From sequence record OM386658.1: DNA of 64,000 nt; one strand, 5' to 3'. This DNA is from Escherichia phage vB_EcoM_ESCO32. Position numbers and translations under genes: made by a program. Numbering within the stretch: position 1 is the first letter of the stretch; the number at the start of each line of letters is the position of its first letter. Below the pieces are notes generated by a model. That model was not told the DNA's origin. It saw only the letters and a program-made list of their open reading frames with translations, and ran no database searches. Positions 1 through 42,031 of the stretch are shown here, one piece after another.

Positions 1-350
1 ACATTAGCTAATAATAACGCACCGCAACAATGTAAGGGAATACAATATACTCGTATATTGTTGCGCTTGCAATTGTTGCAAGCTACATAAGCACAAATAA
101 TAACTATCGGTGATGGTTATTATGTGGGGTGTGTAGTTGCGTTATTATTAGCCGCCTATGTGTCCGGCATAGGCTGCTAATGATACGCTTGCGAATTATA
201 TTTCTTGTTATAGTTATTGTATGAAATGATTACTACATGAAATGGTTATTTAGGTAATAGATAGGGAGGTAAAGATTAGATCATAAATAGATAGGATATT
301 AATTATTTAGCAATGTTACTAACAATTTAATAGTTACTTTGTGCAACAAT

Positions 351-398
351 TCGATAGATTATAGTTATAGTTTTAAGGGTTAGATAGATTATAGTTAG
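351..398. repeat. short direct repeat GATAGATTATAGTTA x2 in AT-rich ORF-free leader region
   Basis: 15-mer present twice about 33 bp apart inside the 860-bp AT-rich non-coding region at the window start. Confidence 0.3.
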
Positions 399-544
399 CT
401 TAGTAATGATTTACATTGATTATTGTTGTTTAATATAAGGTTATCAATAAGATAGTAACAGTATGTTATAAATAAAAGTAAGATAATTAGCTTTAATTTA
501 GTTAGATAACTTATTATTTTATAAGTTAGATGGTCTTAAGTTAA

Positions 545-617
545 GAATGATTATCATTATTGCATTATGCAGTTTATTGCATAAATAATCAGCTATAAAT
601 GAAAATGATTATCACTT
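545..617. promoter_or_regulatory. Fur-box-like palindromic sites
   Basis: GAATGATTATCATTATT (545-561) and AAATGATTATCACTT (603-617) resemble the GATAATGATAATCATTATC iron box; AT-rich context, so chance similarity is possible. Confidence 0.3.
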
Positions 618-825
618 AAGAGGAAAGACAAGAAAAAGGCTGTTTTTGCCAGATAGTTACATTGAGAAATTAAAAATAAGCGGTCTAAAACACGTTGTAA
701 GCGCCTTATGATCTTCATGGTATGGTTGTTCATCTGCTCCTTGATTAGCTCGATACCGCGATCTATTCACTTTTTTCGGTGAACGTTTTTGATAGGTAAA
801 AGCTATCATCTTTATTTAGGTAAAA

Positions 826-850
826 AGAAAGGGCGCTTTGTGCGCCCTGG
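826..850 (-). terminator. rho-independent terminator after CDS 864..1247
   Basis: minus strand reads GGGCGC-acaaa-GCGCCC stem followed by TTTCTTTTTACC. Confidence 0.6.
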
Positions 851-863
851 TGTGAAATGTTAT

Positions 864-1247
864 TTACTTATAAGCCGGATCGTTTGTTATATCAATCCAA
901 TGAGCTAAATTAATTTTATTTTTTGCTTTCATTTTCTCGATCAAACGTTCGGCTAATGTCTCGGAACGAATATAAACATGCTCGCTAAAATCTTGCCCGG
1001 TTTCTTCGTCGATCATCTCGCGATATTCAATTTTCCCGATAAACGCATGATTCAGCGCATAAGTTTTACCCGTGTACCAGTTATGTAAATGGATCTCGCA
1101 TTTATAATCATCGCTATACCCTTCGGTTGTTCTAACTTCAACCAGATCGCCTTTAAACACTGATAAGCACCACATAGGATCACGATCTACAGCGCCGTTA
1201 AAATCTTTACCGTTTACAGTAGCCGCCAGGTTGATGATATTGCTCAT
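864..1247 (-). CDS. hypothetical early protein (127 aa)
   Basis: ORF track; ATG with GAGGAA-type RBS; terminator downstream; no domain recognised. Confidence 0.55.
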   Translation of the reverse strand: MSNIINLAATVNGKDFNGAVDRDPMWCLSVFKGDLVEVRTTEGYSDDYKCEIHLHNWYTGKTYALNHAFIGKIEYREMIDEETGQDFSEHVYIRSETLAERLIEKMKAKNKINLAHWIDITNDPAYK

Positions 1248-1322
1248 GGTGATTCCTCGTTTACCGTTTAAAATTGCTTGCCCTACACGATAACTATAAG
1301 TTAACAGAGGCTATAAAGCAAG

Positions 1323-1553
1323 TTATTTTTCAAAAAATTTTTCTGCTGTGATATTCTTCCCAGTGGGGTTAGCTACTTTCAAAATTTTATCATGTACTGG
1401 ACGCCCGAAAGAATAAGATCCGTATACAGTAAACCAATAATCGCCGTCAGGCTGTACTATTACCGCCGCATAGGGTACGCCTTTTTCGTTATTGCTGACA
1501 AAATAGATCACATTGCCGTTAATAGCCTCAGCGCGTTTAATTTGTTCGATCAT
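1323..1553 (-). CDS. hypothetical early protein (76 aa)
   Basis: ORF track; ATG preceded by AGGAA and by promoter plus leader hairpin cassette. Confidence 0.55.
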   Translation of the reverse strand: MIEQIKRAEAINGNVIYFVSNNEKGVPYAAVIVQPDGDYWFTVYGSYSFGRPVHDKILKVANPTGKNITAEKFFEK

Positions 1554-1571
1554 GATATGATTCCTATATTG

Positions 1572-1632
1572 GGCGGGAAACCATTTCCCGCCTTACGTGA
1601 TACATCTTAGTATAAGGGCGATCCGGTGTCAA
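1572..1632 (-). promoter_or_regulatory. early promoter plus leader stem-loop cassette
   Basis: minus strand TTGACA-17 bp-TAAGAT then GGCGGGAAAtggTTTCCCGCC (1572-1592) immediately upstream of the RBS of CDS 1323..1553. Confidence 0.6.
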
Positions 1633-1645
1633 TAGATAAAGTTAA

Positions 1646-1882
1646 TTATTTTGCATAATCAATAACAGCGCATATTTTATCATTTACATCTTGTAAATCA
1701 AAGGCATAGGCGATCTTGCCTTGTAATTTTCCACGGGTGAAACAGATACGATAAACGCCGTTTTTACTGTCATCTTCTGATTTTAGTATTTTTGCAACTG
1801 TTGCAATTAACAGATCATCAGAGTAAGCGATAAAACCGCCACGTAAAATAGGTGATTTTTTGAGGATCATGACTTCTTTCAT
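1646..1882 (-). CDS. hypothetical early protein (78 aa after start trimming)
   Basis: ORF track frame 1646..1930; the track start lies inside the -10 element, so start moved to in-frame ATG (MKEVMILKK) downstream of the promoter. Confidence 0.5.
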   Translation of the reverse strand: MKEVMILKKSPILRGGFIAYSDDLLIATVAKILKSEDDSKNGVYRICFTRGKLQGKIAYAFDLQDVNDKICAVIDYAK

Positions 1883-1929
1883 TTTCTTTTCCTGTTTTCG
1901 TTTTGGGTATGTTCTACCCTCTAAAAACA

Positions 1930-1958
1930 ATATTAAACTGTTGTGATTTATCGGTCAA
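1930..1958 (-). promoter_or_regulatory. sigma70-type promoter
   Basis: minus strand TTGACC-17 bp-TAATAT upstream of CDS 1646..1882. Confidence 0.45.
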
Positions 1959-2052
1959 TAGATGAGATTGTAAAGATTTGATAGTTTATTCCTTTGATGT
2001 TTTGTTATTTAATAGATATTAGCTATCAATATATAGCGGGATCTTCCGGTGA

Positions 2053-2205
2053 TTATCTTCCCCTGTCCCCAGGTGCCGCCCGTTCCATAATAATAATCAA
2101 AAGCAGGATAAAAGGCAAGATAAAAGGCAAATTATTCCCTATGTGCTTTAAACGCTCTAAACAGCTTTCTAACAGCTTTTTCATCCTGGCAAGGTGATTA
2201 GTCAT
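2053..2205 (-). CDS. possible small hydrophobic protein (about 50 aa)
   Basis: ATG with AAGG RBS in the 460-bp gap; translation MTNHLARMKKLLESCLERLKHIGNNLPFILPFIL...; contains a 12-bp tandem duplication; speculative. Confidence 0.25.
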   Translation of the reverse strand: MTNHLARMKKLLESCLERLKHIGNNLPFILPFILLLIIIMERAAPGDRGR

Positions 2206-2304
2206 TGTTACCTTGTTTAAGCGGTTATAATCGGTTTTAGGCTGTTTTACGCCACCTTTTACGTTTATTCTTTACGTGTTACTTCCATCGTGAAAAAAGA
2301 ATAC

Positions 2305-2336
2305 AAAAAAGGGCGCTTAGTGCGCCCCTTTCTTTT
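2305..2336 (-). terminator. rho-independent terminator
   Basis: minus strand GGGGCGCactaaGCGCCC stem followed by TTTTTTGTATTC. Confidence 0.55.
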
Positions 2337-2344
2337 ACCGTGTA

Positions 2345-2734
2345 TTAATATTCGTTATAATACATCGCTAACTTTTCATCAAAAGCCGATTGACGATCTG
2401 CATACTCCCAAAACATTTCTTGATCCTGTTGTTCGTCATCATCCATCATGTTGAATTGCGCAACCTCCTGGTAAGTGATCGCCATATTATAACGATAGGT
2501 GATCTCTTCTGCGATGTTTTCCGGTAAAGATGATTCTACACTGTCTAACAGCATATTTAACATCATTTCAGCCGCTTTTTCATCATTATCAAAGCAGTAA
2601 GCAGACCATGCCGCATGATGTTTATTTTTCATCTTTGCAATCAAGCCGTTGACTAAAAAAGGCGCTACGTTGTTAACGATACCCTGTAAAGATTGGAATT
2701 TTTCAACGTTAGAAACAGAAACCAGGTTGCGCAT
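2345..2734 (-). CDS. hypothetical early protein (129 aa after start trimming)
   Basis: ORF track frame 2345..2770; track start lies inside the leader hairpin; in-frame ATG (MRNLVSV) with AAAGG RBS chosen. Confidence 0.5.
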   Translation of the reverse strand: MRNLVSVSNVEKFQSLQGIVNNVAPFLVNGLIAKMKNKHHAAWSAYCFDNDEKAAEMMLNMLLDSVESSLPENIAEEITYRYNMAITYQEVAQFNMMDDDEQQDQEMFWEYADRQSAFDEKLAMYYNEY

Positions 2735-2757
2735 AGTATTTACCTTTTTGATTACCT

Positions 2758-2816
2758 GGCGGGAAACCATTTCCCGCCTACGTGGTAAATAATACCATAT
2801 TGGGGATCGGTGTCAA
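2758..2816 (-). promoter_or_regulatory. early promoter plus leader stem-loop cassette
   Basis: minus strand TTGACA-16 bp-TGgTATTAT then GGCGGGAAAtggTTTCCCGCC (2758-2778). Confidence 0.6.
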
Positions 2817-2822
2817 TACTTT

Positions 2823-3209
2823 TTATTCAATATAAATCAAATTATCTTCACCAATGTAAGCATGCACCGATGGCATTAATTTAGCTGCATTTGTTAGGCG
2901 GTTGGCGGTGTTAGTAGTGTATATTTCAGGGCGATCCCAAAAGCCTACGCCGTGACCGTTACGGGTGAAATGTAAGTCATTCCCGATCTGGTTTGCTGTT
3001 GCGCCGTCGCTCATTGCCTCAGAGATAGCAGCATCATTGGCATCACAATAAGCCGCTACGTCATGAATGATCCGCTGATGGGCTTGATCTGAAAAATCAT
3101 AATCGTCTAAGTTATCAATAAAATAGCCTTCATGATCCCTGGCGGATTCAGCAAAAATAAAGGCTTCTTTATAACCGTTGATGATTTCAATAATGATTTC
3201 AGTTTTCAT
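2823..3209 (-). CDS. hypothetical early protein (128 aa)
   Basis: ORF track; ATG start overlapping the stop of the upstream gene (translational coupling). Confidence 0.55.
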   Translation of the reverse strand: MKTEIIIEIINGYKEAFIFAESARDHEGYFIDNLDDYDFSDQAHQRIIHDVAAYCDANDAAISEAMSDGATANQIGNDLHFTRNGHGVGFWDRPEIYTTNTANRLTNAAKLMPSVHAYIGEDNLIYIE

Positions 3210-3421
3210 GCTGTACGCTCGACAATAATAATGGTTTGCGGTATCTCGTTTTCTACTACTAACAAGGCTTTTTTCTGTGTGATAGATATTTTAACACGTT
3301 GTAAAGTAGCGGTAAAATCTTTCATTTCATTATGCGCGGATTTAGTGCAATGCCATATTTCAGGTTTACCAATTTGCAAGCCGCGTAAAAATTCTGTTTT
3401 ACCTGTCTTATTCGTGATCAT
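3206..3421 (-). CDS. hypothetical early protein (about 71 aa)
   Basis: ORF track frame 3206..3439 (TTG in track); in-frame ATG (MITNKTGK) with AAGGTG RBS preferred. Confidence 0.45.
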   Translation of the reverse strand: MITNKTGKTEFLRGLQIGKPEIWHCTKSAHNEMKDFTATLQRVKISITQKKALLVVENEIPQTIIIVERTA

Positions 3422-3431
3422 TTGATTCACC

Positions 3432-3536
3432 TTATCCAATACCGTGGGAAGATAGGATCATGTTAGCCATAGTTGCAACCAATCCAACCGATAACACCAG
3501 GCCAACTACTACAACCGTGAAAATTTTCTCTAACAT
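3432..3536 (-). CDS. possible small hydrophobic peptide (34 aa)
   Basis: ATG with GAGGG RBS directly downstream of a promoter/hairpin cassette; MLEKIFTVVVVGLVLSVGLVATMANMILSSHGIG; below the ORF-track size cut-off. Confidence 0.25.
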   Translation of the reverse strand: MLEKIFTVVVVGLVLSVGLVATMANMILSSHGIG

Positions 3537-3554
3537 GATTCTACCCTCATTAAT

Positions 3555-3616
3555 GGGCGTTGCCTTATTGCCCCGCCCTATGTCGTACACTTTACCAGAT
3601 AACTGAATATTGTCAA
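3555..3616 (-). promoter_or_regulatory. early promoter plus imperfect leader stem-loop
   Basis: minus strand TTGACA-16 bp-TAAAGT then GC-rich imperfect palindrome GGGCGGGGCAAtaaggCAACGCCC. Confidence 0.5.
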
Positions 3617-3617
3617 A

Positions 3618-3812
3618 CTATTTTTTACAAGGGATCAGTAAACTTCTTGCTACCGCTTCACGTAAACCTTTACTTTTTATTAAATCTATTGTTGCAGGGT
3701 GGCAAGTAAAAGCCTTTGACCATTTTTGATCACCTGGTTTACGGGCGAAAATGTAAACTTCTCCGTCGATTTCATCCCAACGAGTATTGCTTGTTAGTTT
3801 TTTAAGCGCCAT
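3618..3812 (-). CDS. hypothetical early protein (about 64 aa)
   Basis: ORF track frame 3618..3842; track start (GTG) falls in the leader hairpin; in-frame ATG (MALKKL) chosen. Confidence 0.45.
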   Translation of the reverse strand: MALKKLTSNTRWDEIDGEVYIFARKPGDQKWSKAFTCHPATIDLIKSKGLREAVARSLLIPCKK

Positions 3813-3833
3813 GCTGATTTCTCTTTTAGTTAT

Positions 3834-3892
3834 GAGCGGCACTATTGCCGCCCTACGAAATACATTCTACCCGATTTATAATTGTTGTCAAA
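3834..3892 (-). promoter_or_regulatory. early promoter plus leader stem-loop cassette (variant B)
   Basis: minus strand TTGACA-16 bp-TAGAAT then GGGCGGCAatagTGCCGCTC (3834-3853). Confidence 0.55.
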
Positions 3893-4162
3893 CTATTTTT
3901 TCAAGCTCGACCAGTCAAAACACGGGGCGATCTCGTTAAAACTTGTGCCCTGTAAAGCACATAATTTTTTAGCAATAGCCGCCGTGACCTGGCGCTGTAC
4001 GCGCGGATCTGCTACTGATTGGAGAAAGTAGGCGGCTTTATATGTGATCATGCTTTCGCCTGTTTCCTTGTTAACGTGGTGCACGGTTTTAGCCTTATCA
4101 TCTTTTACCAGGGTGTAACCGGATTCGATGGCCTTGATTGCAACGTCCAATGATATTTTCAT
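3893..4162 (-). CDS. hypothetical early protein (89 aa)
   Basis: ORF track; ATG preceded by AAGAGATAA-type sequence and hairpin. Confidence 0.55.
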   Translation of the reverse strand: MKISLDVAIKAIESGYTLVKDDKAKTVHHVNKETGESMITYKAAYFLQSVADPRVQRQVTAAIAKKLCALQGTSFNEIAPCFDWSSLKK

Positions 4163-4181
4163 GATTTATCTCTTTATTGAT

Positions 4182-4203
4182 GGCGGGGAATACTCCCCCC
4201 GCC
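4182..4203 (-). promoter_or_regulatory. intercistronic GC-rich stem-loop without promoter
   Basis: GGCGGGGaatactCCCCCCGCC sits 8 nt after the stop of the upstream small ORF and 20 nt before the next ATG; no -35/-10 pair and no U-tract. Confidence 0.5.
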
Positions 4204-4210
4204 TTATTAA

Positions 4211-4381
4211 TTACTCTTCATCGTCGCCGTTGTAGTATTCAATGCCGTTTTCATCGGTTACGGTAATATTAACGCCACCGATAGCAACACGATCACGGGC
4301 AAACGTCATGGCTTCATTTAAATCTTCAGACCAAAAAATATTGTGACCTTTGCGCGATACATAAAACATAGTCGGGATCAT
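4211..4381 (-). CDS. small hypothetical protein (56 aa)
   Basis: unannotated gap ORF MIPTMFYVSRKGHNIFWSEDLNEAMTFARDRVAIGGVNITVTDENGIEYYNGDDEE; fills the gap between two cassettes. Confidence 0.45.
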   Translation of the reverse strand: MIPTMFYVSRKGHNIFWSEDLNEAMTFARDRVAIGGVNITVTDENGIEYYNGDDEE

Positions 4382-4402
4382 GATTTGTTTCTCTTCTGTT
4401 GT

Positions 4403-4464
4403 GAGCGGGAAACCACTTCCCGCCCTATGTGATAAACTTTACTACGTTGTTTTTCTGCTGTCAA
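4403..4464 (-). promoter_or_regulatory. early promoter plus leader stem-loop cassette
   Basis: minus strand TTGACA-17 bp-TAAAGT then GGCGGGAAgtggTTTCCCGCTC. Confidence 0.6.
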
Positions 4465-4465
4465 A

Positions 4466-4750
4466 TTATTTTTTAATGTTTTGCCCTACAAAATTGATCA
4501 CTTCCTTAAGCTGTTTCTCAGTCATGATCGTGCCTGGTAATTCTTCTTTGATTTCTTCCGGTAAATAGATATTACCGCGCCAAGTTAATAAACAACAGTT
4601 TTGATCTTCGCAGATGGAATAAGAGAAGATCCACTCATTATCATTCTCAAGCTCCCAAAAGCACAAAAAATCTTCTTTCCCTAAGTTTTCAACGGTTAAG
4701 CATAATCCGCGACGTGCTGCATAGTTGGAAAGTGCTTTTGTGATCTTCAT
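4466..4750 (-). CDS. hypothetical early protein (94 aa)
   Basis: ORF track; ATG; cassette upstream. Confidence 0.55.
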   Translation of the reverse strand: MKITKALSNYAARRGLCLTVENLGKEDFLCFWELENDNEWIFSYSICEDQNCCLLTWRGNIYLPEEIKEELPGTIMTEKQLKEVINFVGQNIKK

Positions 4751-4769
4751 AGCTTATCTCTTCTTTTAA

Positions 4770-4833
4770 GGCGGGGAAACCATTTCCCCGCTCTATGAGA
4801 TACAATATACTACCCGTTCGGTGTGCTGTCAAT
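4770..4833 (-). promoter_or_regulatory. early promoter plus leader stem-loop cassette
   Basis: minus strand TTGACA-17 bp-TATATT then GCGGGGAAAtggTTTCCCCGC (4771-4791). Confidence 0.6.
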
Positions 4834-5156
4834 CAATAATCTTCAATATTTTCTACATTGACAAAAGCATGTTTATTTTCTAAGTTTTCGCCGTACCATT
4901 GCCCCATGTTGATTTCTGCGGTGCGCAACCAGGACATGCCGCGTTGTATCTTTTTACTTGCAATCTCGATCCGGCTTTTGCATAGTGCTTTCGCTTGCAA
5001 TGTAAAAACACTATTGCCCTGTAATGCTTCCAGGTCATCATGTGCAAGGCGATACTCTTTAAAGCCTGATTCTATCATTTCAATAGCATCAAGTAAACGC
5101 GCGCGATGATAGAAAAAATCAGAGTTATCCAAATAAACACCGATCACAGATTTCAT
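4833..5156 (-). CDS. hypothetical early protein (about 107 aa)
   Basis: ORF track frame 4833..5216; track start lies inside the promoter spacer; in-frame ATG (MKSVIGV) downstream of the -10 chosen. Confidence 0.5.
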   Translation of the reverse strand: MKSVIGVYLDNSDFFYHRARLLDAIEMIESGFKEYRLAHDDLEALQGNSVFTLQAKALCKSRIEIASKKIQRGMSWLRTAEINMGQWYGENLENKHAFVNVENIEDY

Positions 5157-5199
5157 AATTTTACCCTTTTGTTTGCGGCCTTTGCCGTTTTCAAGATAT

Positions 5200-5228
5200 A
5201 TTTTAAAGCATAACAAAAAATTGTCAAA
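5200..5228 (-). promoter_or_regulatory. sigma70-type promoter (no leader hairpin)
   Basis: minus strand TTGACA-16 bp-TAAAAT. Confidence 0.5.
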
Positions 5229-5256
5229 CCTTTAAAGCGTACAACTATAAAACCTA

Positions 5257-5376
5257 TTAAAACACAATATATAACAACATGGCTATAGTAGCAATATAAC
5301 ATAAAACCATGCTTGTTTTCCTTCCTTCCTCATATGCTGGATTTATTACGCTATACTGTACGGGAATAACTTTCAT
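5257..5376 (-). CDS. possible small protein (39 aa)
   Basis: gap ORF MKVIPVQYSVINPAYEEGRKTSMVLCYIATIAMLLYIVF with AAGGA RBS; speculative. Confidence 0.25.
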   Translation of the reverse strand: MKVIPVQYSVINPAYEEGRKTSMVLCYIATIAMLLYIVF

Positions 5377-5385
5377 GTTGTTTCC

Positions 5386-5481
5386 TTAATGTCTTAAAAC
5401 GTGGTTTACAATAGAAACAAGTATACAGAAGAAAAAAGATCCTGACAATAAGATCCCGAAAAATAAATGTAAATAGGGCAT
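5386..5481 (-). CDS. possible small membrane peptide (31 aa)
   Basis: gap ORF MPYLHLFFGILLSGSFFFCILVSIVNHVLRH with GGAG RBS; speculative. Confidence 0.3.
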   Translation of the reverse strand: MPYLHLFFGILLSGSFFFCILVSIVNHVLRH

Positions 5482-5485
5482 GGTT

Positions 5486-5788
5486 TTACTCCTTAAAAAA
5501 ATCATTGACAATTAAACTGATAACGCCCAGCACCAGATCACCAGGTAGCGCCGCGCTTTCGTTGTTGCTTATTTGCACTTCCTCACTAGTACCAGCATGA
5601 TAAATCGCATGGTAAGCAATAGTATAATAACCTTTCGTTATTTCTTTAAGATTAATGATTAGCACGTTATTTGTTTCATCTTGAAACAATTTAGCGGTGA
5701 TAGTATTGTTTTCTTTTACACTATCGACTTTTATTGATGGATCAGTTACACCAGAAAAAAGAAAAAACGTTTTAGCTATGCCGTTCAT
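5486..5788 (-). CDS. hypothetical early protein (100 aa)
   Basis: ORF track; ATG with AAAGGAG RBS; promoter upstream. Confidence 0.55.
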   Translation of the reverse strand: MNGIAKTFFLFSGVTDPSIKVDSVKENNTITAKLFQDETNNVLIINLKEITKGYYTIAYHAIYHAGTSEEVQISNNESAALPGDLVLGVISLIVNDFFKE

Positions 5789-5810
5789 GTAGTTCTCCTT
5801 TGTTGTGTGT

Positions 5811-5839
5811 ATCTTATAACGTGCTTTCTATGTTGTCAA
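5811..5839 (-). promoter_or_regulatory. sigma70-type promoter
   Basis: minus strand TTGACA-17 bp-TAAGAT directly upstream of CDS 5486..5788. Confidence 0.5.
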
Positions 5840-6237
5840 TCTTTTATCTCGGTGCATTTTGCTAGGGTATACGTTGCAAGTGCTGACACTAGTTTTTCAT
5901 TGCTACGATCTGCGGCTGTACTGTGTACTTTTTGAATACTTTTTAGCCACGGCGTAAAGTTTTGAGTAGTAAGCACACTAGTAATAATTTCACATGGCAC
6001 GTTTTCATTTAAACCGTTAGCTATAGATTTATCTATTTTTGCCGTTAGTTGTGTAACAGCACCATAAGCGATCATGTGTGAATCCTCCATGATTTCATCG
6101 GGGATCGCATTATTAATGATCATCACGTTTTCCATTGCATCAACGGCGCTTAATTCTGCTACTGTGGAGGATATTGCCGCGTGAGATGTTCCAACCATGC
6201 CAAAAGAGATTAAACCAGCGATCAATAATTTTTTCAT
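5836..6237 (-). CDS. secreted or periplasmic hypothetical protein with signal peptide
   Basis: ORF track frame 5836..6249; start placed at MKKLLIAGLISFGMVGTSHA with GAGG RBS; N-terminal hydrophobic signal-like segment. Confidence 0.55.
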   Translation of the reverse strand: MKKLLIAGLISFGMVGTSHAAISSTVAELSAVDAMENVMIINNAIPDEIMEDSHMIAYGAVTQLTAKIDKSIANGLNENVPCEIITSVLTTQNFTPWLKSIQKVHSTAADRSNEKLVSALATYTLAKCTEIKD

Positions 6238-6245
6238 TTCTTGCC

Positions 6246-6428
6246 TCATATATGTTTTATTGAGATTATATTGTCACTATATACAACGTTTTTCAACGTG
6301 TCAATAAAAATCTTATTGCCTTCAATCCCCAGGATCACGCCGCTAGTTATGAAGCCATATTGATCACGGTATCGGGCGCATAACCTTTGCCCCTGGGCTA
6401 GTGCCTTGCTTATTTCTTCTAATCTCAT
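6246..6428 (-). CDS. hypothetical early protein (60 aa)
   Basis: ORF track; ATG with AGGAG RBS; stop overlaps the downstream gene start. Confidence 0.45.
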   Translation of the reverse strand: MRLEEISKALAQGQRLCARYRDQYGFITSGVILGIEGNKIFIDTLKNVVYSDNIISIKHI

Positions 6429-6520
6429 TTTAAAGCTCCTGTAAAGCCGTCTAACGTTGATTTATAGGCTTGCCCTGGCGTTACCATTGCCTATGGGTAA
6501 CAAGCCTCTATATAAGCTAA

Positions 6521-6548
6521 AAGGGCGCTTATTGCGCCCTTTTTTGTT
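6521..6548. terminator. GC hairpin, possible bidirectional terminator
   Basis: AAGGGCGCttattGCGCCCTT followed by TTTTTGTT on plus strand and shorter T run on minus. Confidence 0.5.
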
Positions 6549-6684
6549 ATTCGTTCCAGTATCTTTTTGTGCTGCGATCTCTTTTTGTTTTGTTCCGCTT
6601 ATCGCCTTTCTTGGTGATCTCTTCGTTCCAATTTTTACGCGCCTTGCTGCGGTTGAATTTTTCGATCTGCTGTGATGCGTTCAT
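6547..6684 (-). CDS. small highly basic protein (45 aa)
   Basis: gap ORF MNASQQIEKFNRSKARKNWNEEITKKGDKRNKTKRDRSTKRYWNE with GAGGA RBS; lysine/arginine rich. Confidence 0.4.
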   Translation of the reverse strand: MNASQQIEKFNRSKARKNWNEEITKKGDKRNKTKRDRSTKRYWNE

Positions 6685-6699
6685 GTTTTTTCCTCTTAA

Positions 6700-7059
6700 T
6701 TACGCCACGTTATGCTGTTTTGCCAGGATTACGATCATGCTTGCAATATATAACCAATAATTTTCCCGCTCACGGGTAACGGTTGTTTCTTTGCTTGTTT
6801 CTTTTATGTACTTCCATTCAATTAACAAGTGATCGATCTCGTTATAATCAAAAGCAATATTGACTTCTGACGGTAAACCTTGTAACCATGAGGCTATTGC
6901 CTTGATCACGTTATAATTGTAACGTTTTTGATTATCGGGATACCAGTATTCAGAGTTAAAACGGCGCATCAGTTCGGTGATCTTTTCTTTTTCGGTTGTA
7001 GTACCATCAAAAGAAATAGCCGACACAATGTAAGTTTTAATTGCTTTTACTGATTTCAT
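6700..7059 (-). CDS. hypothetical early protein (119 aa)
   Basis: ORF track; ATG; cassette upstream. Confidence 0.55.
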   Translation of the reverse strand: MKSVKAIKTYIVSAISFDGTTTEKEKITELMRRFNSEYWYPDNQKRYNYNVIKAIASWLQGLPSEVNIAFDYNEIDHLLIEWKYIKETSKETTVTRERENYWLYIASMIVILAKQHNVA

Positions 7060-7079
7060 AATCTTATCTCTTTATTGAT

Positions 7080-7138
7080 GGCGGGAAACCATTTCCCGCC
7101 GTTGTTGTTACTTTACTTATAAATGATGCTACTGTCAA
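7080..7138 (-). promoter_or_regulatory. early promoter plus leader stem-loop cassette
   Basis: minus strand TTGACA-17 bp-TAAAGT then GGCGGGAAAtggTTTCCCGCC (7080-7100). Confidence 0.6.
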
Positions 7139-7145
7139 ACGGATA

Positions 7146-7316
7146 TTATTTGTTTTTTAACGTTAATGTTCCCAGCTTATCAGCGTGACGCAGACCAGGA
7201 AAGATCCATTTTCCTGATTCATCTTTTACCGGGGCTTTAAGCGTAGCGCCCAGATTGGCGGCATTAACTTTACGTGCAACGTTGCGAGCGGCTTCACGGG
7301 TGGCGAAAGTGATCAT
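7146..7316 (-). CDS. small hypothetical protein (56 aa)
   Basis: gap ORF MITFATREAARNVARKVNAANLGATLKAPVKDESGKWIFPGLRHADKLGTLTLKNK; hairpin upstream. Confidence 0.45.
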   Translation of the reverse strand: MITFATREAARNVARKVNAANLGATLKAPVKDESGKWIFPGLRHADKLGTLTLKNK

Positions 7317-7340
7317 GGTGTTTTCCTCTTCTCTTTGTTA

Positions 7341-7400
7341 GGCGGTGGGCTATTCCACCGCCTTGATGAATATAGTTTACTTTATTTTGTTAAGATTGCA
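7341..7400 (-). promoter_or_regulatory. promoter-like element plus leader stem-loop
   Basis: GGCGGTGGgctattCCACCGCC hairpin (7341-7362) preceded on minus strand by TTGCAA-16 bp-TAAACT. Confidence 0.5.
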
Positions 7401-7407
7401 AGCGGTT

Positions 7408-7623
7408 TTATGAAATAATTGTCAAAGTAAAATCATAATCTTTTGACAGTTTATATTGTACCTTGTTCCCGTAATAGTCACCTTTACGTAAAGATCCGCG
7501 AATACCTATTACATCCTTTACATCTTTAAGATTTTTCACGCCTGTAATGTCTTTATTGAAATGATCGTGATCAGAAAATAAAACCTGCTTTGCATTTTTT
7601 AACAATGTGCGGATATTAGCCAT
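7408..7623 (-). CDS. hypothetical early protein (71 aa)
   Basis: ORF track; ATG; cassette upstream. Confidence 0.5.
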   Translation of the reverse strand: MANIRTLLKNAKQVLFSDHDHFNKDITGVKNLKDVKDVIGIRGSLRKGDYYGNKVQYKLSKDYDFTLTIIS

Positions 7624-7643
7624 TTGATAATCTCTCTCACTAT

Positions 7644-7701
7644 GAGCGGCACTATTGCCGCCCTATGAATTACATTTTACTAATTTTAGTTATCTTGTCA
7701 A
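7644..7701 (-). promoter_or_regulatory. early promoter plus leader stem-loop cassette (variant B)
   Basis: minus strand TTGACA-16 bp-TAAAAT then GGGCGGCAatagTGCCGCTC (7644-7663). Confidence 0.6.
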
Positions 7702-7709
7702 TATTATTT

Positions 7710-7937
7710 TTAGTTTAATGCATCCAGGCACAACAAGCGATCAACATTTAGATCGGTTAGGCTAATCGTTGGCACCTGGTAGGATTCGATATATTCGACG
7801 CTCGACCACTGACCAAAATTAGCGACCGCCCAGCTATTCAAGGAAGAGTGAAGATCATCCCCTTTCTTCTCTGTGATGACTGCTACTACCTGGGAGCTTC
7901 CAACCGTACCGGATACGCGAACAATAACGATAGCCAT
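7710..7937 (-). CDS. hypothetical early protein (75 aa)
   Basis: ORF track; ATG with AAAGG RBS. Confidence 0.5.
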   Translation of the reverse strand: MAIVIVRVSGTVGSSQVVAVITEKKGDDLHSSLNSWAVANFGQWSSVEYIESYQVPTISLTDLNVDRLLCLDALN

Positions 7938-7960
7938 AATTATAACCTTTCTTTGATTTG

Positions 7961-8020
7961 GCGGGAAACCATTTCCCGCCCTATGTGATAAACTATACCA
8001 GAATATAAAACGTTGTCAAC
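7961..8020 (-). promoter_or_regulatory. early promoter plus leader stem-loop cassette
   Basis: minus strand TTGACA-16 bp-TATAGT then GGCGGGAAAtggTTTCCCGCC (7961-7981). Confidence 0.6.
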
Positions 8021-8028
8021 TGTTTTTA

Positions 8029-8268
8029 TTACATTCCAACCATAGCGGCACGGATTGCAGTTTTACTATACTTGAATCCGTCCGGTGTTTTATCTTGTCC
8101 AGTTTGCTCCAGGAATAACATCATATCACGCGCGGCATCATTCTTATTTGTATTAGCTGCGATAAATTCACGCGCAAGATTATAAAAACCTTCATCGTTG
8201 TTGATCCAAAGGCTTACATTCCAATGAGTTTTGTTTTTGTGACCGTTGTACATTTTAGATTTAGCCAT
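8029..8268 (-). CDS. hypothetical early protein (about 79 aa)
   Basis: ORF track frame 8029..8325; track start overlaps the -10 TATAAT; in-frame ATG (MAKSKMYNGHK) downstream of hairpin chosen. Confidence 0.5.
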   Translation of the reverse strand: MAKSKMYNGHKNKTHWNVSLWINNDEGFYNLAREFIAANTNKNDAARDMMLFLEQTGQDKTPDGFKYSKTAIRAAMVGM

Positions 8269-8291
8269 GATGTTAATCTCTTTTTCAGTGA

Positions 8292-8350
8292 GGCGGGAAC
8301 TATTCCCGCTCTCTATGCAAAACATTATACGCCTTTAAACCTAGTTTGCA
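8292..8350 (-). promoter_or_regulatory. early promoter plus leader stem-loop cassette
   Basis: minus strand TTGCAA-16 bp-TATAAT then GGCGGGAAtagTTCCCGC. Confidence 0.6.
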
Positions 8351-8370
8351 AGTGCTTTTTAAAAATATGC

Positions 8371-8601
8371 TTAGATTGCAATCGCGTCTAGGCTATAATA
8401 ATAATAAGTGCCGTATTGGTGTACTTTATTACCTTTTATTTCAGTGCTGAATGAATCCGAACGATTAGCATATGATGTTAATTTATAATACTTTGCTTTA
8501 CTAATACGTTGCCATACACCGCAGATCCGCTGTAAGTAAGTAGTTTTATTAGTAGTAGTATCTTTTACGGTTTTAACTTCGGTCATATACATATTAGCCA
8601 T
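8371..8601 (-). CDS. hypothetical early protein (about 76 aa)
   Basis: ORF track frame 8371..8634; track start is inside the leader hairpin; in-frame ATG (MANMYMTEV) chosen. Confidence 0.45.
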   Translation of the reverse strand: MANMYMTEVKTVKDTTTNKTTYLQRICGVWQRISKAKYYKLTSYANRSDSFSTEIKGNKVHQYGTYYYYSLDAIAI

Positions 8602-8620
8602 TTTATTATACCTAGTTATA

Positions 8621-8683
8621 GGCGGGGGAACCATTCCCCCGTCCTGATATGAAACATTTTACGCTTTTTATTCGTGCTGTCAA
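8621..8683 (-). promoter_or_regulatory. early promoter plus leader stem-loop cassette
   Basis: minus strand TTGACA-16 bp-TAAAAT then GGACGGGGGAAtggTTCCCCCGCC. Confidence 0.6.
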
Positions 8684-8689
8684 TGCTTT

Positions 8690-9055
8690 TTATAAATCTT
8701 TTTTACGTTTAACATCGCTTGCATGACTGTATACAGCGATCCCATTGTCACGGCAAAAACGGGAAAGGTAAGCATAATTTGAAAAGTCTTTGCCTTCCAG
8801 GTTGATGACCTTGCTAAACTCTTCCAGGGCAACGGTATCAAAATGATCCCCGTAACCATAGTGAAACGGAACGTTAACGACTTCAATCAGTTTACCGCCG
8901 ATCTCAACGTCAACCATCAAAGAGAAATAAGTATTACCATAAGACTTTTGAAACCAGCGACGGGCGCTAATATGTACCGCTTCAATGCTGGATAGTTCAA
9001 TTTTAGCAGTGTTAGCCAGGGTAGCATAAGCAGAAACATTGATATTTTTAGCCAT
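8690..9055 (-). CDS. hypothetical early protein (121 aa)
   Basis: ORF track; ATG; promoter upstream. Confidence 0.55.
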   Translation of the reverse strand: MAKNINVSAYATLANTAKIELSSIEAVHISARRWFQKSYGNTYFSLMVDVEIGGKLIEVVNVPFHYGYGDHFDTVALEEFSKVINLEGKDFSNYAYLSRFCRDNGIAVYSHASDVKRKKDL

Positions 9056-9102
9056 AGTCTTTAATCTCTTTTGATTAGTTAGGAGTATTCCCGATAAAAG
9101 TT

Positions 9103-9131
9103 ATTATGCTTGTACTATCGTTCGTTGTCAA
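9103..9131 (-). promoter_or_regulatory. sigma70-type promoter (no hairpin)
   Basis: minus strand TTGACA-17 bp-CATAAT. Confidence 0.5.
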
Positions 9132-9150
9132 TAGCACAAGACTAAAACTT

Positions 9151-9330
9151 TTAACGATAATCATCATATGCTTTATTGACCTGGCGAATATAGCATTCAA
9201 AAGCTAGATCAATAGATTTATATTCACGGATATAATTACCATAGGAAACCACATACATTTCTATAGCTTCCTCATATGCCAGGAGGATAGAATCTAAACC
9301 TACGATCTCAGTCTTCGCAATAATAGCCAT
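9151..9330 (-). CDS. small hypothetical protein (59 aa)
   Basis: gap ORF MAIIAKTEIVGLDSILLAYEEAIEMYVVSYGNYIREYKSIDLAFECYIRQVNKAYDDYR; tandem promoters upstream. Confidence 0.45.
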   Translation of the reverse strand: MAIIAKTEIVGLDSILLAYEEAIEMYVVSYGNYIREYKSIDLAFECYIRQVNKAYDDYR

Positions 9331-9367
9331 GCTTTTATTCCTTAGTAATGTTTCAATCTATATAAGC

Positions 9368-9472
9368 ATTATAGCTTACTGATTTTAGGTGTCAACTGAT
9401 TTTTTATTTCACCTTTGAGAAGTTGCCCCGCTCTATGTGGTACATATTACGGGGCTTGTTTGCATATGTCAA
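9368..9472 (-). promoter_or_regulatory. two tandem sigma70-type promoters with long-loop GC hairpin between them
   Basis: minus strand TTGACA-17-TAATAT (9444-9472) and TTGACA-16-TATAAT (9368-9395); GCCCCG...CGGGGC inverted repeat around 9424-9455. Confidence 0.5.
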
Positions 9473-9475
9473 CCC

Positions 9476-10030
9476 TTACACAATGCAATTTTCATAATTT
9501 TTTAAGGCTTGTATTTTTTCCTCTTCTGTCGGCGTGTATGGCTGGATCTCTTCCTCTTCCATGTTAGGCATGATTTCTTCCTCTTCCTCCTGGTCGTCCT
9601 GGTCTTCCTCTTGCGCTATGGTAACAAGTTTATTGATCTTCTCCTGGGCTTTAATCAATTTTGCATCTAGCACCATTTTAGCGGTGTTGTATACAGTCCA
9701 TGCCATGCGCTTTTCTTCGTATGCCTTATCTAGTGCGGCTAATTTAGCGGGATACTCTTCTAACACCTTAAAAGCCGGATCAATGCTATATAAGGGATTA
9801 TTTTTAGCGTCATCGCTTGGATCTGCGGCGCTTGCAATGTCAGCGTTACCGTTTGCCAGCCAACCAGGGCGAACGGATCGCGTCTTTGTGTGACCGTTGC
9901 TCTTTGCCGCTCGATTCCCTATCTGCTCCCCGCTGTACCCTACCATGTGATCGATCATGTCATCTGGTATTATGCGCGGATCATTAGCGTCATGCTTTAC
10001 CCATGACTGGATCACATATTCACGCCCCAT
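9476..10030 (-). CDS. hypothetical protein with strongly acidic C-terminal tail (184 aa)
   Basis: ORF track; C-terminus QEEDQDDQEEEEEIMPNMEEEEIQPYTPTEEE; start overlaps the upstream gene end. Confidence 0.55.
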   Translation of the reverse strand: MGREYVIQSWVKHDANDPRIIPDDMIDHMVGYSGEQIGNRAAKSNGHTKTRSVRPGWLANGNADIASAADPSDDAKNNPLYSIDPAFKVLEEYPAKLAALDKAYEEKRMAWTVYNTAKMVLDAKLIKAQEKINKLVTIAQEEDQDDQEEEEEIMPNMEEEEIQPYTPTEEEKIQALKNYENCIV

Positions 10031-10292
10031 GTTCGTTCGCCTCTTCTGTTAGTAGTTTACACACCTTAAACATGCTTGCCGCGTCTTTTGACGGTAGCCA
10101 GCCTATGCGATACACTCCAGGATCTGGATTCGTTATATCCGTTAGTTGGGCATTACGATGATTAAAAATAGTGTAACCGCCGCCAGCACGGGGATAAACA
10201 TTATCTTTAAACCTGATAGCGTATCTCGCCAGGTTGAACGTCGTAGCATGTTCAAAAGCGATCACATTATCAAAAACTTTTAGAAAAAACAA
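10020..10292 (-). CDS. hypothetical early protein (90 aa)
   Basis: ORF track; TTG start with GGAGGA RBS 5 nt upstream. Confidence 0.5.
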   Translation of the reverse strand: MFFLKVFDNVIAFEHATTFNLARYAIRFKDNVYPRAGGGYTIFNHRNAQLTDITNPDPGVYRIGWLPSKDAASMFKVCKLLTEEANEHGA

Positions 10293-10294
10293 GA

Positions 10295-10441: not shown

Positions 10442-10460
10442 AAAGTTTTATCCTATGTAA

Positions 10461-10514
10461 GCGGGAACTATTCCCGCTTTAAGATAGCTTATCAGGTTTT
10501 AGTGCAATGTCAAC
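10461..10514 (-). promoter_or_regulatory. early promoter plus leader stem-loop cassette
   Basis: minus strand TTGACA-16 bp-TAAGCT then GCGGGAAtagTTCCCGC. Confidence 0.55.
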
Positions 10515-10519
10515 CGTTT

Positions 10520-10882: not shown

Positions 10883-10904
10883 TGTGTTACCCTTTCTTTG
10901 ATTT

Positions 10905-10964
10905 GGCGGGAAACCATTTCCCGCCCTATGTGGTATATATTACTAAATTATTTTTCAGTGTCAA
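10905..10964 (-). promoter_or_regulatory. early promoter plus leader stem-loop cassette
   Basis: minus strand TTGACA-16 bp-TAATAT then GGCGGGAAAtggTTTCCCGCC (10905-10925). Confidence 0.6.
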
Positions 10965-10967
10965 GCC

Positions 10968-11240: not shown

Positions 11241-11262
11241 GATTATTTCTCTCTTCTGTTAT

Positions 11263-11320
11263 GAGCGGCACTATTGCCGCCCTATGTGATACATCTTATC
11301 AGATTAAAAAACGTTATCAA
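11263..11320 (-). promoter_or_regulatory. early promoter plus leader stem-loop cassette (variant B)
   Basis: minus strand TTGATA-16 bp-TAAGAT then GGGCGGCAatagTGCCGCTC (11263-11282). Confidence 0.55.
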
Positions 11321-11328
11321 GAATATTT

Positions 11329-11959: not shown

Positions 11960-11962
11960 TAT

Positions 11963-34729: not shown

Positions 34730-34788
34730 TTGACTTTCTTTAAAAACAGTTTATAGTATAAGACATAGAGCGGAGGATTGTCCTCCGC
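34730..34788 (+). promoter_or_regulatory. promoter plus leader stem-loop cassette (plus-strand copy) upstream of terC
   Basis: TTGACT-16 bp-TATAGT then CATAGAGCGGAGGAttgTCCTCCGC; same architecture as the minus-strand early cassettes. Confidence 0.55.
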
Positions 34789-34806
34789 ATTAAAGAGGAG
34801 AAAAGA

Positions 34807-35784
34807 ATGCAACTGGGTTTCCCAATTATTGATGTGGTTGTTTTAGTGGGTATTTTAGTCTTGTCGATTTGTATTGACTTCTTTGGACACAGAGAAAACA
34901 AAGAAATTTCATTTAAATCTGCAATTGGCTGGTCAATTTTCTGGATTGGGGTATCATTAGCCTACTATGGTTTTGTATACTTCCAACACGGTGCTGATTT
35001 TGCGAGCTTGTTCTTGAGTGGGTATGTGTTGGAGAAATCTCTTTCTGTAGATAACTTAGTAGTATTTGTAGCAGTATTCGCAAGTTTTGGTATTAAAAGC
35101 ACACACTTGCAGCACAAGATTCTACTTTGGGGTATTGCAGGTGCGATTGTCTTCCGAGGTGTGTTTGTAGCAGTAGGTACTTACTTGTTGAGTTTGGGCT
35201 GGTATGTTAATATCTTCTTCGGTGCTGTCATCCTTTTCTGTGCGGCTAAAATGGTATTCGCTGGAGATAATGATGCAGAAGTTGATTACTCTAAACACTG
35301 GGCTACTCGCATTGTTCGTAAGCTGTTCCCTGTATCTGATCAGATGGATGGTGAGAAGTTCTTCACAATCAAAAATGGTGTTCGTGTAGCAACTCCGGCT
35401 CTGGTTTGTGTGTTTGTAATGGAAATGGTTGACGTAATCTTTGCAGTAGACTCTGTTCCAGCAGTAATTGCAGTGACACAAGAACCTCTGCTGGTGTTCT
35501 CTTCGATGCTCTGTGCAATCTTAGGTTTACGTGCTCTGTTCTTTGTTCTTAGTGTTGCACTGAAGTATTTGGTTCATCTGGAGAAAGCAGTTATCGTAGT
35601 CCTGGTGTTTGTGGGTGTAAAACTGATGTATCACCCGTTTGCAGAAACTCTGCACGCAAAAGTGAGTTTCCTGCCAGCACACATTGACCCGACGATCAGT
35701 ATGTATATTGTGTTAGGTACTCTTGGGCTGGGTGTTCTTGCAAGTTTAATCTTCCCTGAAAAAGAAGACCAGGCTGTTGCTTAA
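34807..35784 (+). CDS. terC: TerC-family integral membrane protein
   Basis: ORF track 325 aa; multiple TM helices; TerC-type motifs LEKSLSVDNLVVFVAVF and VDVIFAVDSVPAVIAV. Confidence 0.85.
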   Translation: MQLGFPIIDVVVLVGILVLSICIDFFGHRENKEISFKSAIGWSIFWIGVSLAYYGFVYFQHGADFASLFLSGYVLEKSLSVDNLVVFVAVFASFGIKSTHLQHKILLWGIAGAIVFRGVFVAVGTYLLSLGWYVNIFFGAVILFCAAKMVFAGDNDAEVDYSKHWATRIVRKLFPVSDQMDGEKFFTIKNGVRVATPALVCVFVMEMVDVIFAVDSVPAVIAVTQEPLLVFSSMLCAILGLRALFFVLSVALKYLVHLEKAVIVVLVFVGVKLMYHPFAETLHAKVSFLPAHIDPTISMYIVLGTLGLGVLASLIFPEKEDQAVA

Positions 35785-35790
35785 TTCATT

Positions 35791-35813
35791 AAGCCCCTTC
35801 GGGGGCTTTATTG
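35791..35813 (+). terminator. rho-independent terminator
   Basis: AAGCCCCttcgGGGGCTT followed by TATTG. Confidence 0.55.
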
Positions 35814-41428: not shown

Positions 41429-42031
41429 ATGGGTATTACTTTAGAAGGTCAAAAACTTATTCGCAGCGGTAATTTTCTTGTGGATATTGACAACAATGAA
41501 GATTATGCTTTAGAAGTTAGTGATGTACTGTTTAATGCTTTGCAGTCTGGTTTCAATTTTGAAGTTTATGAAGTAATCCGTGGAACTAAACTCAGAGAAA
41601 CCCTTGGATCAACTAGTGATGTTTATTCTGCGATCTGGCAATATTTCGGGTTAATGGATGGTAAGACATACCTTACTGATAGTTATTCTGAAGATGTTGT
41701 TTATCTTGATATGGAAGAGTTTCGTCGTCTGTTCAAAAGTGAAGAAAATGAAGAAGAGGGTGAACTTTTTGAAGGAATTACTCTCGAAGGTAATGTTGAA
41801 ATTGTGTATAAAGCAGGAAAAACATTCCACTTGCGTGAAAACGGTAAAGCAAAAGTTGATTTTGTAAACAAGACAGTAACAACTGAACATAATTATCTTA
41901 AAGATGGTCAACCAGCTTTTGAACGTGTAACAATTAAATTTAAAGTATTGTCTGCACTAGTTACGGATCAAGAACGTATTGATTTTGTAGAAGATGGTGT
42001 AGTAACTCATACAAAGGTTTACAACATCTAA
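41429..42031 (+). CDS. hypothetical protein (200 aa)
   Basis: ORF track; AGAGGAGAAAA RBS; followed by GC hairpin AGAGGGGGgataaTCCCCCTC. Confidence 0.65.
   Translation: MGITLEGQKLIRSGNFLVDIDNNEDYALEVSDVLFNALQSGFNFEVYEVIRGTKLRETLGSTSDVYSAIWQYFGLMDGKTYLTDSYSEDVVYLDMEEFRRLFKSEENEEEGELFEGITLEGNVEIVYKAGKTFHLRENGKAKVDFVNKTVTTEHNYLKDGQPAFERVTIKFKVLSALVTDQERIDFVEDGVVTHTKVYNI

Follow-up and report, generated by a model that had tools for sequence, protein, structure and literature searches.

We describe a repeated early-gene expression cassette in Escherichia phage vB_EcoM_ESCO32 (OM386658.1; the window referred to throughout is the whole stretch of 64,000 nucleotides that was analysed), in which a short GC hairpin stands at fixed spacing between a sigma70-like promoter and the RBS, and is retained between related phages while the sequence of its stem changes. 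One copy, at 4182-4203, has no promoter of its own, and homology between phages breaks inside it; we therefore read it as half a cassette, with hairpin and RBS, that remains at a recombination junction. Protection of mRNA ends is the most likely function of the hairpin, and we propose, with moderate confidence in the reading as a whole, that it is a transcribed mRNA-end protector within the repeated cassette and that the 4182 copy became promoter-less via recombination. The cassettes are a recognisable variant of known phage expression cassettes, not a new system.

In its early block and terC region the window is 97-100% identical to Justusliebigvirus coliphages (phi92-like myoviruses of the Stephanstirmvirinae), among them ZYD, outra, ESCO8 and Paula, and from position 1 to about 12000 it holds small minus-strand ORFs that are annotated as 'hypothetical' in all relatives. 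Three GenBank records labelled 'Campylobacter phage' (MG065639, A150; MG065645, A145; MG065650, B15) are 92-98% identical to these coliphages over the searched regions, and their host labels look doubtful. Scans of IMG/VR with the 89-aa protein encoded downstream of the 4182 hairpin and with the commonest hairpin sequence matched only two phi92-like contigs, so no diversity was gained from this source. The literature on rV5/phi92-like phages yielded no earlier description of the cassettes, and no transcriptomics or start-site maps were found there for Stephanstirmvirinae/Vequintavirinae. The rV5 genome paper gives promoters and terminators separately (PMC3606486), and in the phAPEC8 record the terC promoter is entered as a 'host dependent promoter determined with MEME', with the hairpin left unmarked.

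When all GC hairpins were printed with their flanks, about 15 minus-strand cassettes of one design were found in the early block of the window (Table 1). A full cassette runs from an AT-rich stretch through TTGACA, 16-17 nt, TAnnnT, 10-11 nt usually with (C)ACATAG, and a 7-9-bp GC hairpin to an A-rich spacer of about 21 nt with a GAG-type SD, and then ATG. The early-block promoters match TTGACA-16/17-TAnnnT at 9-12 of 12 positions and have AAAAATA-type runs upstream, a feature absent at 4182. Cassettes of this design also fill the early blocks of phi92, tuntematon (Phapecoctavirus) and A5-4 (Vequintavirinae), and the four early blocks combined hold 53 promoter, hairpin and RBS cassettes. Across these 53, the median distance from the -10 element to the hairpin is 11 nt (10-11 nt in 32) and that from hairpin to ATG is 21 nt (range 16-27), and the RBS is unpaired in the predicted folds of the cassette leaders. 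In positions 1-12000 we counted 14 GC-rich hairpins with a perfect stem of 7 bp or more, whereas 100 dinucleotide shuffles gave an expectation of 0.28 and a maximum of 2; chance is excluded as the source of this abundance. The cassettes resemble one another closely enough for gene conversion or duplication, rather than selection, to account perhaps for part of the conservation among them.

Table 1. Coordinates of the promoter-less hairpin and its surroundings, the early cassettes, and the terC unit in the window
Feature	Position	Strand	Basis
Early cassette, promoter + GGCGGGAAAUGGUUUCCCGCC	1572..1632	-	hairpin/promoter scans, covariance model
Early cassette	2758..2816	-	hairpin/promoter scans, covariance model
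Cassette TTGACA-16-TAGAAT, hairpin GGGCGGCA-AUAG-UGCCGCUC; next one downstream of the 4182 hairpin	3834..3891	-	
89-aa ORF, downstream of the 4182 hairpin	3893..4162	-	ORF; A5-4 orthologue
A-rich spacer with SD-like AAAGAG (4175-4170), unpaired in the predicted fold	4163..4181	-	sequence and fold
Promoter-less intercistronic GC hairpin, GGCGGGG(G)-GAGUAU-(U)CCCCGCC	4182..4203	-	fold; covariance-model match
UA-rich linker UUAAUAA, 7 nt, from stop codon (4213-4211) to hairpin, without -10 or -35	4204..4210	-	sequence, promoter scan
56-aa ORF, upstream of the 4182 hairpin	4211..4381	-	ORF; tuntematon orthologue
Full cassette: TTGACA 4464-4459, TAAAGT 4441-4436, CACATAG, hairpin 4425-4403 (one G.U pair)	4403..4464	-	
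Early cassette, GCGGGGAAAUGGUUUCCCCGC	4771..4832	-	hairpin/promoter scans, covariance model
Early cassette, 3' arm and spacer matching the 4182 copy	7080..7138	-	hairpin/promoter scans, covariance model
Early cassette, AGGCGGUGG-AAUAGC-CCACCGCCU, weaker promoter match	7340..7400	-	hairpin/promoter scans
Early cassette	7644..7701	-	hairpin/promoter scans, covariance model
Early cassette	7960..8019	-	hairpin/promoter scans, covariance model
Early cassette, GCGGGAAUAGUUCCCGC	8293..8351	-	hairpin/promoter scans, covariance model
Early cassette, CGGGGGAAUGGUUCCCCCG	8623..8683	-	hairpin/promoter scans, covariance model
Early cassette, AAGCGGGAAUAGUUCCCGCUU	10459..10518	-	hairpin/promoter scans, covariance model
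Early cassette	10905..10964	-	hairpin/promoter scans, covariance model
Early cassette	11263..11320	-	hairpin/promoter scans, covariance model
terC cassette: TTGACT 34730-34735, 16 nt, TATAGT 34752-34757, CATAGA 34764-34769, hairpin 34770-34788, SD AAGAGGAG 34793-34800	34730..34806	+	
terC, ATG at 34807	34807..35784	+	PF03741, E = 1.2e-38
Terminator-like hairpin AAGCCCC-UUCG-GGGGCUU, UUCG loop, followed by UAUUG, 6 nt past the terC stop	35791..35808	+	

The original prediction had placed a GC hairpin without a promoter between two genes at 4182, and this is confirmed: the element lies on the minus strand between ORFs of 56 and 89 aa, with no promoter-like site upstream. A promoter consensus scan of the minus strand over 4204-4435 returned zero promoter-like sites, and by eye no TAnnnT was seen within 20 nt upstream of the hairpin. 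Its plus-strand letters are GGCGGGGAATACTCCCCCCGCC, and in the minus-strand sense (4203-4182) it reads GGCGGGGGGAGUAUUCCCCGCC, forming a stem of 7 bp, all G:C (4182-4188 with 4197-4203), around a loop of 8 nt; in the sense RNA an extra G.U pair closes the loop to give 8 bp and a 6-nt loop (-17.1 kcal/mol, z = -3.1). The hairpin starts 7 nt past the TAA of the 56-aa ORF and ends 19 nt ahead of the ATG at 4162. A covariance model built from 20 cassette hairpins, with the 4182 copy left out, matches this site on the minus strand only (17.7 bits, E about 0.025), a score comparable to those of GCGGCA-type cassettes; its only plus-strand matches in the whole window are the terC hairpin and one at 42038-42066.

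The 4182 copy had also been called the same stem-loop as its promoter-linked counterparts, which is right as to family but not as to sequence, for its loop is GGAGUAUU where AAUGG or AAUAG is usual. It has the stem GGCGGG/CCCGCC in common with the 7100-7080 cassette, as well as the 3' flank ATCAATAAAGAGATAA; 3' arm and spacer are identical in the two over 22 nt, and the first 16 nt of the 4163..4181 spacer are those of the spacer in that cassette (7080-7100). The stem is intact in five orthologues, and the loop (4189-4196) has a run of G whose length differs by 0-2 G between phages that are otherwise nearly identical, in a manner resembling homopolymer slippage. The 56-aa ORF is a real gene, its product being that of tuntematon gp024 at 100% amino acid identity with 4 synonymous differences; A5-4 has the 89-aa protein at 97.8% identity, with a full promoter and hairpin cassette before the orthologue instead, and by these comparisons both ORFs are real genes. 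The cassette at 4403..4464 most likely drives the two as a bicistron.

The comparison of orthologous leaders indicates that structure is kept while sequence changes. Thirteen window cassette genes have orthologues in the three relatives, which gives 27 orthologous leaders; a hairpin stands about 20 nt ahead of the ATG in 26 of them, and in at least 12 the stem is a different one. An alignment of the terC leader from six phages, anchored through promoter and coding sequence, revealed three stem versions among the window and five relatives: the same position is occupied by GCGGAGGA/UCCUCCGC in the window and Paula, by GCGGGGAA/UUCCCCGC in tuntematon and ECO340P2, and by GAGGGAG/CUCCCUC in Klebsiella phage KP13-26, and phAPEC8 has GCGGGGAG/UUCCCCGC with a sense-strand G.U pair. 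We relied on these two non-circular tests instead of the count of stem pairs in a hairpin alignment, where both-sided changes occur at 7 of 9 stem positions in a set chosen for forming hairpins, a choice that makes the count partly circular. Sense-strand G.U pairs (about 14) outnumber antisense ones (4), which is a weak sign of the transcribed strand, as many copies are of one sequence and two tuntematon cases show the opposite. Cassettes compared across the window and relatives have no sequence common to all stems or loops, which disfavours a sequence-specific DNA- or RNA-binding protein, and the constraint is best read from these alignments as structural and acting at the RNA level. Searches against Rfam, covering the whole window at gathering threshold and both the 4182 and terC sites at E <= 10, returned only chance-level matches far below gathering scores.

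A plus-strand promoter and hairpin cassette stands ahead of terC exactly as had been predicted (34730-34806), and the identity of the gene is confirmed by Pfam. Its hairpin (34770-34788), GCGGAGGA-TTG-TCCTCCGC in DNA and GCGGAGGA-UUG-UCCUCCGC in RNA, folds at -15.0 kcal/mol (z = -4.35). That this cassette shares the architecture of the early genes is borne out by its retention, with compensatory stem changes, in Paula, tuntematon, phAPEC8, ECO340P2 and KP13-26. The wider proposal that the 'Ter module' as such belongs to the early-gene regulatory class is not supported, as only terC has the cassette, and a TelA homologue (37563-38666) and the intervening genes are without one; outside the early block, terC is the only cassette-bearing gene in the window. 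Two small ORFs upstream of terC, at 33417-34250 (+), lies a gene for a Macro-domain protein (PF01661, 1.5e-6), annotated in relatives as a phosphatase or macrodomain protein. The Rfam yybP-ykoY (Mn2+) riboswitch found no match ahead of terC at gathering threshold or at E <= 10, and the leader is only about 45 nt long. Since terC has the cassette, transcription by unmodified host RNA polymerase as its own unit is to be expected, and this unit would be bounded downstream by the terminator-like hairpin at 35791-35808; conservation of the cassette in three genus-level groups, together with the hairpin that follows the gene, supports terC as a putative self-contained unit driven by the host polymerase. 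Early expression of terC from a sigma70-type promoter is plausible; such promoters occur across the whole rV5 genome (PMC3606486). The terC cassette predicts host-polymerase-driven, probably early, expression of a membrane protein.

The 4182 hairpin coincides with a junction between early modules. Dozens of Phapecoctavirus genomes share only positions 4198-4765 of the window, a segment that starts (4197-4207) inside the 4182 hairpin and ends at the 4771 hairpin. Past the same 56-aa ORF, tuntematon reads TAA-UCAACA-AGGCGGGAUUAAUCCCGCCU and continues into a different gene; it keeps the 5' arm GGCGGG and diverges from the loop onward. A5-4 shares only the 89-aa ORF (window 3843-4172), its homology stopping at 4172, and has there a full promoter and GGGGCG-ACAAG-CGCCCC cassette; phi92 is without both the 56-aa and the 89-aa ORF. 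Homology between genera in the terC region likewise begins inside the terC cassette. Breakpoint clusters touch cassettes in 16 of 50 cases, with cassettes making up 8.7% of the early block (P = 3e-5); since cassettes account for almost all of the intergenic DNA in the block, this excess is inseparable from a bias towards intergenic DNA in general. Promoter-less junctions of stop codon, hairpin, RBS and ATG are also present in tuntematon (9696-9677, 8334-8319 and 8052-8037) and A5-4 (5640-5658), and six consensus promoters in the early block of the window have no hairpin. The original prediction had taken the promoter-less copy to mean that the hairpin is an RNA-level element working independently of the promoter: these cases uphold its separability, but not its independent function. 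At 9472-9444 (-) there is a truncated cassette with a consensus-like promoter, CATAGA and GCGGGGCAAC, which has the 5' arm only and no 3' arm; a perfect TTGACA-16-TATAAT promoter (9368-9395, -) lies 25 nt past it, and the whole looks like a cassette broken in the loop.

We propose that the hairpin acts on the ends of the RNA that carries it. The usual distance from a -10 element to +1 is 6-7 nt, and full-cassette transcripts would start at the CA of CATAG, with the hairpin predicted from -10 spacing alone at +4/+5, about 4-5 nt from the 5' end. A protective 5' hairpin reportedly tolerates no more than about this number of unpaired nucleotides before it, a limit ascribed to Emory and Bouvet in 1992, and the predicted leaders, with four to five, would stand at that limit. 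Stem-loops at the 5' terminus stabilise E. coli mRNAs (Emory 1992, Bouvet 1992 and Arnold 1998, cited in PMC3997798), and RppH, in the case of the B. subtilis enzyme, needs only two to three unpaired 5' nucleotides. A hairpin so placed would be both a stabiliser of the RNA and an insulator, hindering RppH and 5'-end-dependent attack by RNase E, and would keep the A-rich RBS region unpaired.

The 4182 copy would be transcribed inside a bicistronic mRNA from the promoter at 4464-4436 and would act only on processed ends. We rejected a role as an obstacle to scanning RNase E, for which simple stem-loops are reported to be ineffective: an internal one gives negligible shielding of downstream sites (PMC11194081), and the plausible roles of the 4182 copy are therefore on processed ends. 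It might serve as a stop for 3' exonucleases, thereby protecting the 56-aa cistron; PNPase stalls at stem-loops in a manner that scales with stem stability (PMC10667835). Alternatively, it might become a 5' protector of the 89-aa cistron once RNase E has cut the linker UUAAUAA, UA-rich single-stranded RNA being a cleavage target of this enzyme (PMC11194081). Recombination within the hairpin would have fused the 56-aa module, at its 3' end, with the RBS that serves the 89-aa module, which would be why the 4182 copy lost its promoter or never had one.

Ranked second to mRNA-end protection is attenuation, in which the hairpins would be leaky terminators of the type found in the PeSL (promoter-early stem-loop) cassettes of T4-like phages, limiting upstream read-through and leaving every small early gene to depend chiefly on its own promoter, with the 4182 copy lowering the 89-aa relative to the 56-aa ORF. 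A phi1/RB49 PeSL stem-loop cut lacZ expression as strongly as rrnB T1 (PMC2839356), the record of phage Paula annotates cassette hairpins as terminators, and the 4182 hairpin lies just past a stop codon, with energies of -15 to -17 kcal/mol being typical of terminator stems. However, the hairpins have no U-tract on the sense strand, the tail of the 4182 copy (AUCAAUAAA) having 2 U in 9 nt and the 9 nt after hairpins family-wide being A-rich and averaging 1.7 T against 2.45 expected, and a hairpin downstream of its own promoter would abort that promoter's transcripts too; it is for these two reasons that attenuation is placed second, and we consider it unlikely. True U-tract terminators are separate, at 848-830, 2327-2311 and 6543-6519, and in several cases the Paula 'terminators' lie antisense to the genes. 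As to their form, the real terminators of the early block are GGGCGC...GCGCCC hairpins with U-tracts, and the one at 6519-6543 has A-/T-tracts on both sides and is bidirectional. In the Paula record (LR865361), the features on the opposite strand include orthologues of both the 4182 and the terC hairpin. The plus-strand tail of the 4182 hairpin, TTATTAATT, prompted terminator calls both by scanners and in that record; it faces no plus-strand gene, and a plus-strand call at 4182 is antisense to all local genes.

The position of the promoter-less copy, exactly at a homology breakpoint, means that recombination scarring may be part of what it is, and somewhat less probable than attenuation is that the element is mainly a scar of this kind: a homology patch for the exchange of early modules, as proposed for PeSLs, with the promoter-less copy having no RNA function of its own. 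Breakpoints inside the 4182 hairpin and at other cassettes are consistent with this, as are the truncated cassette with a 5' arm only (9472-9444) and, in RB49, a crossover mapped within a PeSL loop. A mere scar would leave unexplained why the 4182 stem is intact in 5 of 5 orthologues despite variation of the G-run in its loop, why independent promoter-less hairpins of other sequences stand at the same distance from the ATG in tuntematon and A5-4, and why the hairpin is kept at nearly all orthologous leaders (26/27) despite turnover of the stem.

Recognition by a protein is improbable. A phage or host RNA-binding protein, for example one that represses translation of early genes or one that acts in antitermination as lambda N does at boxB, might bind the hairpin beside the RBS, and the fixed position about 21 nt before start codons and the recurrence of the apical sequences GAAAUGGUUUC, GGAAUAGUUCC and GCAAUAGUGC in promoter-linked copies would suit such a site; yet loops (UUG, UAG, ACAAG, AUAGG, GGAGUAUU, UUAA) and stems vary widely, no loop base is invariant and no Rfam family matches. 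Still more improbable is a DNA-level operator or cruciform, centred near +15 like lacO, through which a phage repressor would shut off early promoters: an inverted repeat does lie just downstream of the start site at most early promoters, but its half-sites are not conserved (GGCGGG, GCGGCA, GGGGCG, GCGGAGGA, GAGGGAG), copies exist without any promoter, and several pair only via a sense-strand G.U, though two tuntematon copies show the opposite. Least probable of all is processing by RNase III as in the early region of phage T7, which the presence of an intercistronic hairpin in a phage early transcript might suggest; classical RNase III substrates span about two helical turns, roughly 20 bp of helix, and the cassette stems are only 7-9 bp, a length on which we rejected this reading.

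Returning to mRNA-end protection, we offer tentatively a joint reading that we regard as possible but itself rather doubtful. The rV5-, phAPEC8- and phi92-like myoviruses would share a mobile promoter/5'-hairpin/RBS cassette that evolved independently of the PeSLs of T4-like phages; its hairpin would serve at once as a cap-like 5' protector of its own transcript, as a stop for 3' exonucleases on the incoming transcript, and as a DNA crossover point by which early genes are reassorted across genera, and promoter-less copies such as that at 4182 would be working by-products.

If the hairpins do protect mRNA ends, the cassette is a compact natural 5'-UTR part made of promoter, stabilising hairpin and unstructured RBS, and it would help to explain strong expression of dozens of tiny early genes in therapeutic phi92/rV5 coliphages. 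If they are also crossover points, they would explain the mosaic early regions of these phages and extend the PeSL idea beyond T4-like phages. There is also a consequence for annotation, since present labels make the cassette hairpins terminators and in some cases place them on the wrong strand. In our view the single promoter-less copy is of less interest than the general finding that another large group of therapeutic coliphages has a PeSL-like cassette system.

Among known systems, Rho-independent terminators resemble the cassette hairpins in having a GC-rich stem of 7-9 bp and a short loop after a stop codon, but differ in the U-tract, which the transcribed strand lacks here. Phage morons, in which a gene with its own promoter and terminator lies inside another operon, resemble terC with its consensus-like promoter and the hairpin at 35791-35808 in a plus-strand cluster, whereas the source here is a lytic myovirus, not a prophage, and the terC unit is predicted from sequence. 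Stabilisers at the 5' terminus (the ompA and papA 5' UTR hairpins and the leader of phage T7 gene 10) likewise combine a stable hairpin near the 5' end, predicted in our case, with an unpaired RBS, and in both only structure is conserved; they lie within about 0-4 nt of the 5' end, and the hairpin of the full cassettes is predicted at +4/+5. Unlike ompA/papA-type stabilisers, the 4182 copy is internal to its transcript, and protection would need prior processing. In this it is closer to hairpins that stabilise mRNA from between cistrons (selective RNA processing and stabilisation; REP-type 3' barriers, PMC10667835), being stable, without a U-tract and between cistrons, though it has no sequence relation to REP.

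The closest known system is that of the PeSL cassettes of the T4-like phages RB49/phi1, T4/PST and KVP40/nt-1 (Arbiol 2010, PMC2839356; Comeau 2014, PMC4122927). Like the cassettes described here, PeSLs are repeated, intergenic and found in blocks of small ORFan early genes; they combine a strong sigma70-like promoter and AT-rich upstream region with a G/C-tract stem-loop, SD and start codon; and indel or replacement breakpoints between related phages fall at the cassettes, including inside the loop, a tendency inseparable here from intergenic bias. Placement of the stem-loop as in PeSLs is only isolated in our material (window 42042-42061; tuntematon 13313-13288). At 42042-42093 (+) of the window, a hairpin GAGGGGGGAUAAUCCCCCUC without a U-tract comes right after an ORF (41429..42031) and is followed by a promoter-like TTGCAA-17-TACAAT, an order of hairpin before promoter that is the reverse of that in the cassettes and nearer to classical PeSLs (covariance-model score 22.6 bits); in tuntematon, at 13288-13313 (-), the TATAAT of a TTGACT-16-TATAAT promoter lies inside the loop of the hairpin TATAGCGCC/GGCGCTATA, a PeSL-like overlap of the -10 element. 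The PeSL stem-loop otherwise varies in position among five subclasses, mostly between or over the -35 and -10 elements or upstream of them and thus before its own start, whereas the hairpins here are fixed 10-11 nt past the -10, inside the 5' UTR, with an A-rich tail. The PeSL stem-loop is a demonstrated transcription terminator (PMC2839356), in contrast to hairpins here that have no U-tract, and the phages that carry them belong to the Stephanstirmvirinae/Vequintavirinae rather than to the T4-like lineage in which PeSLs are found.
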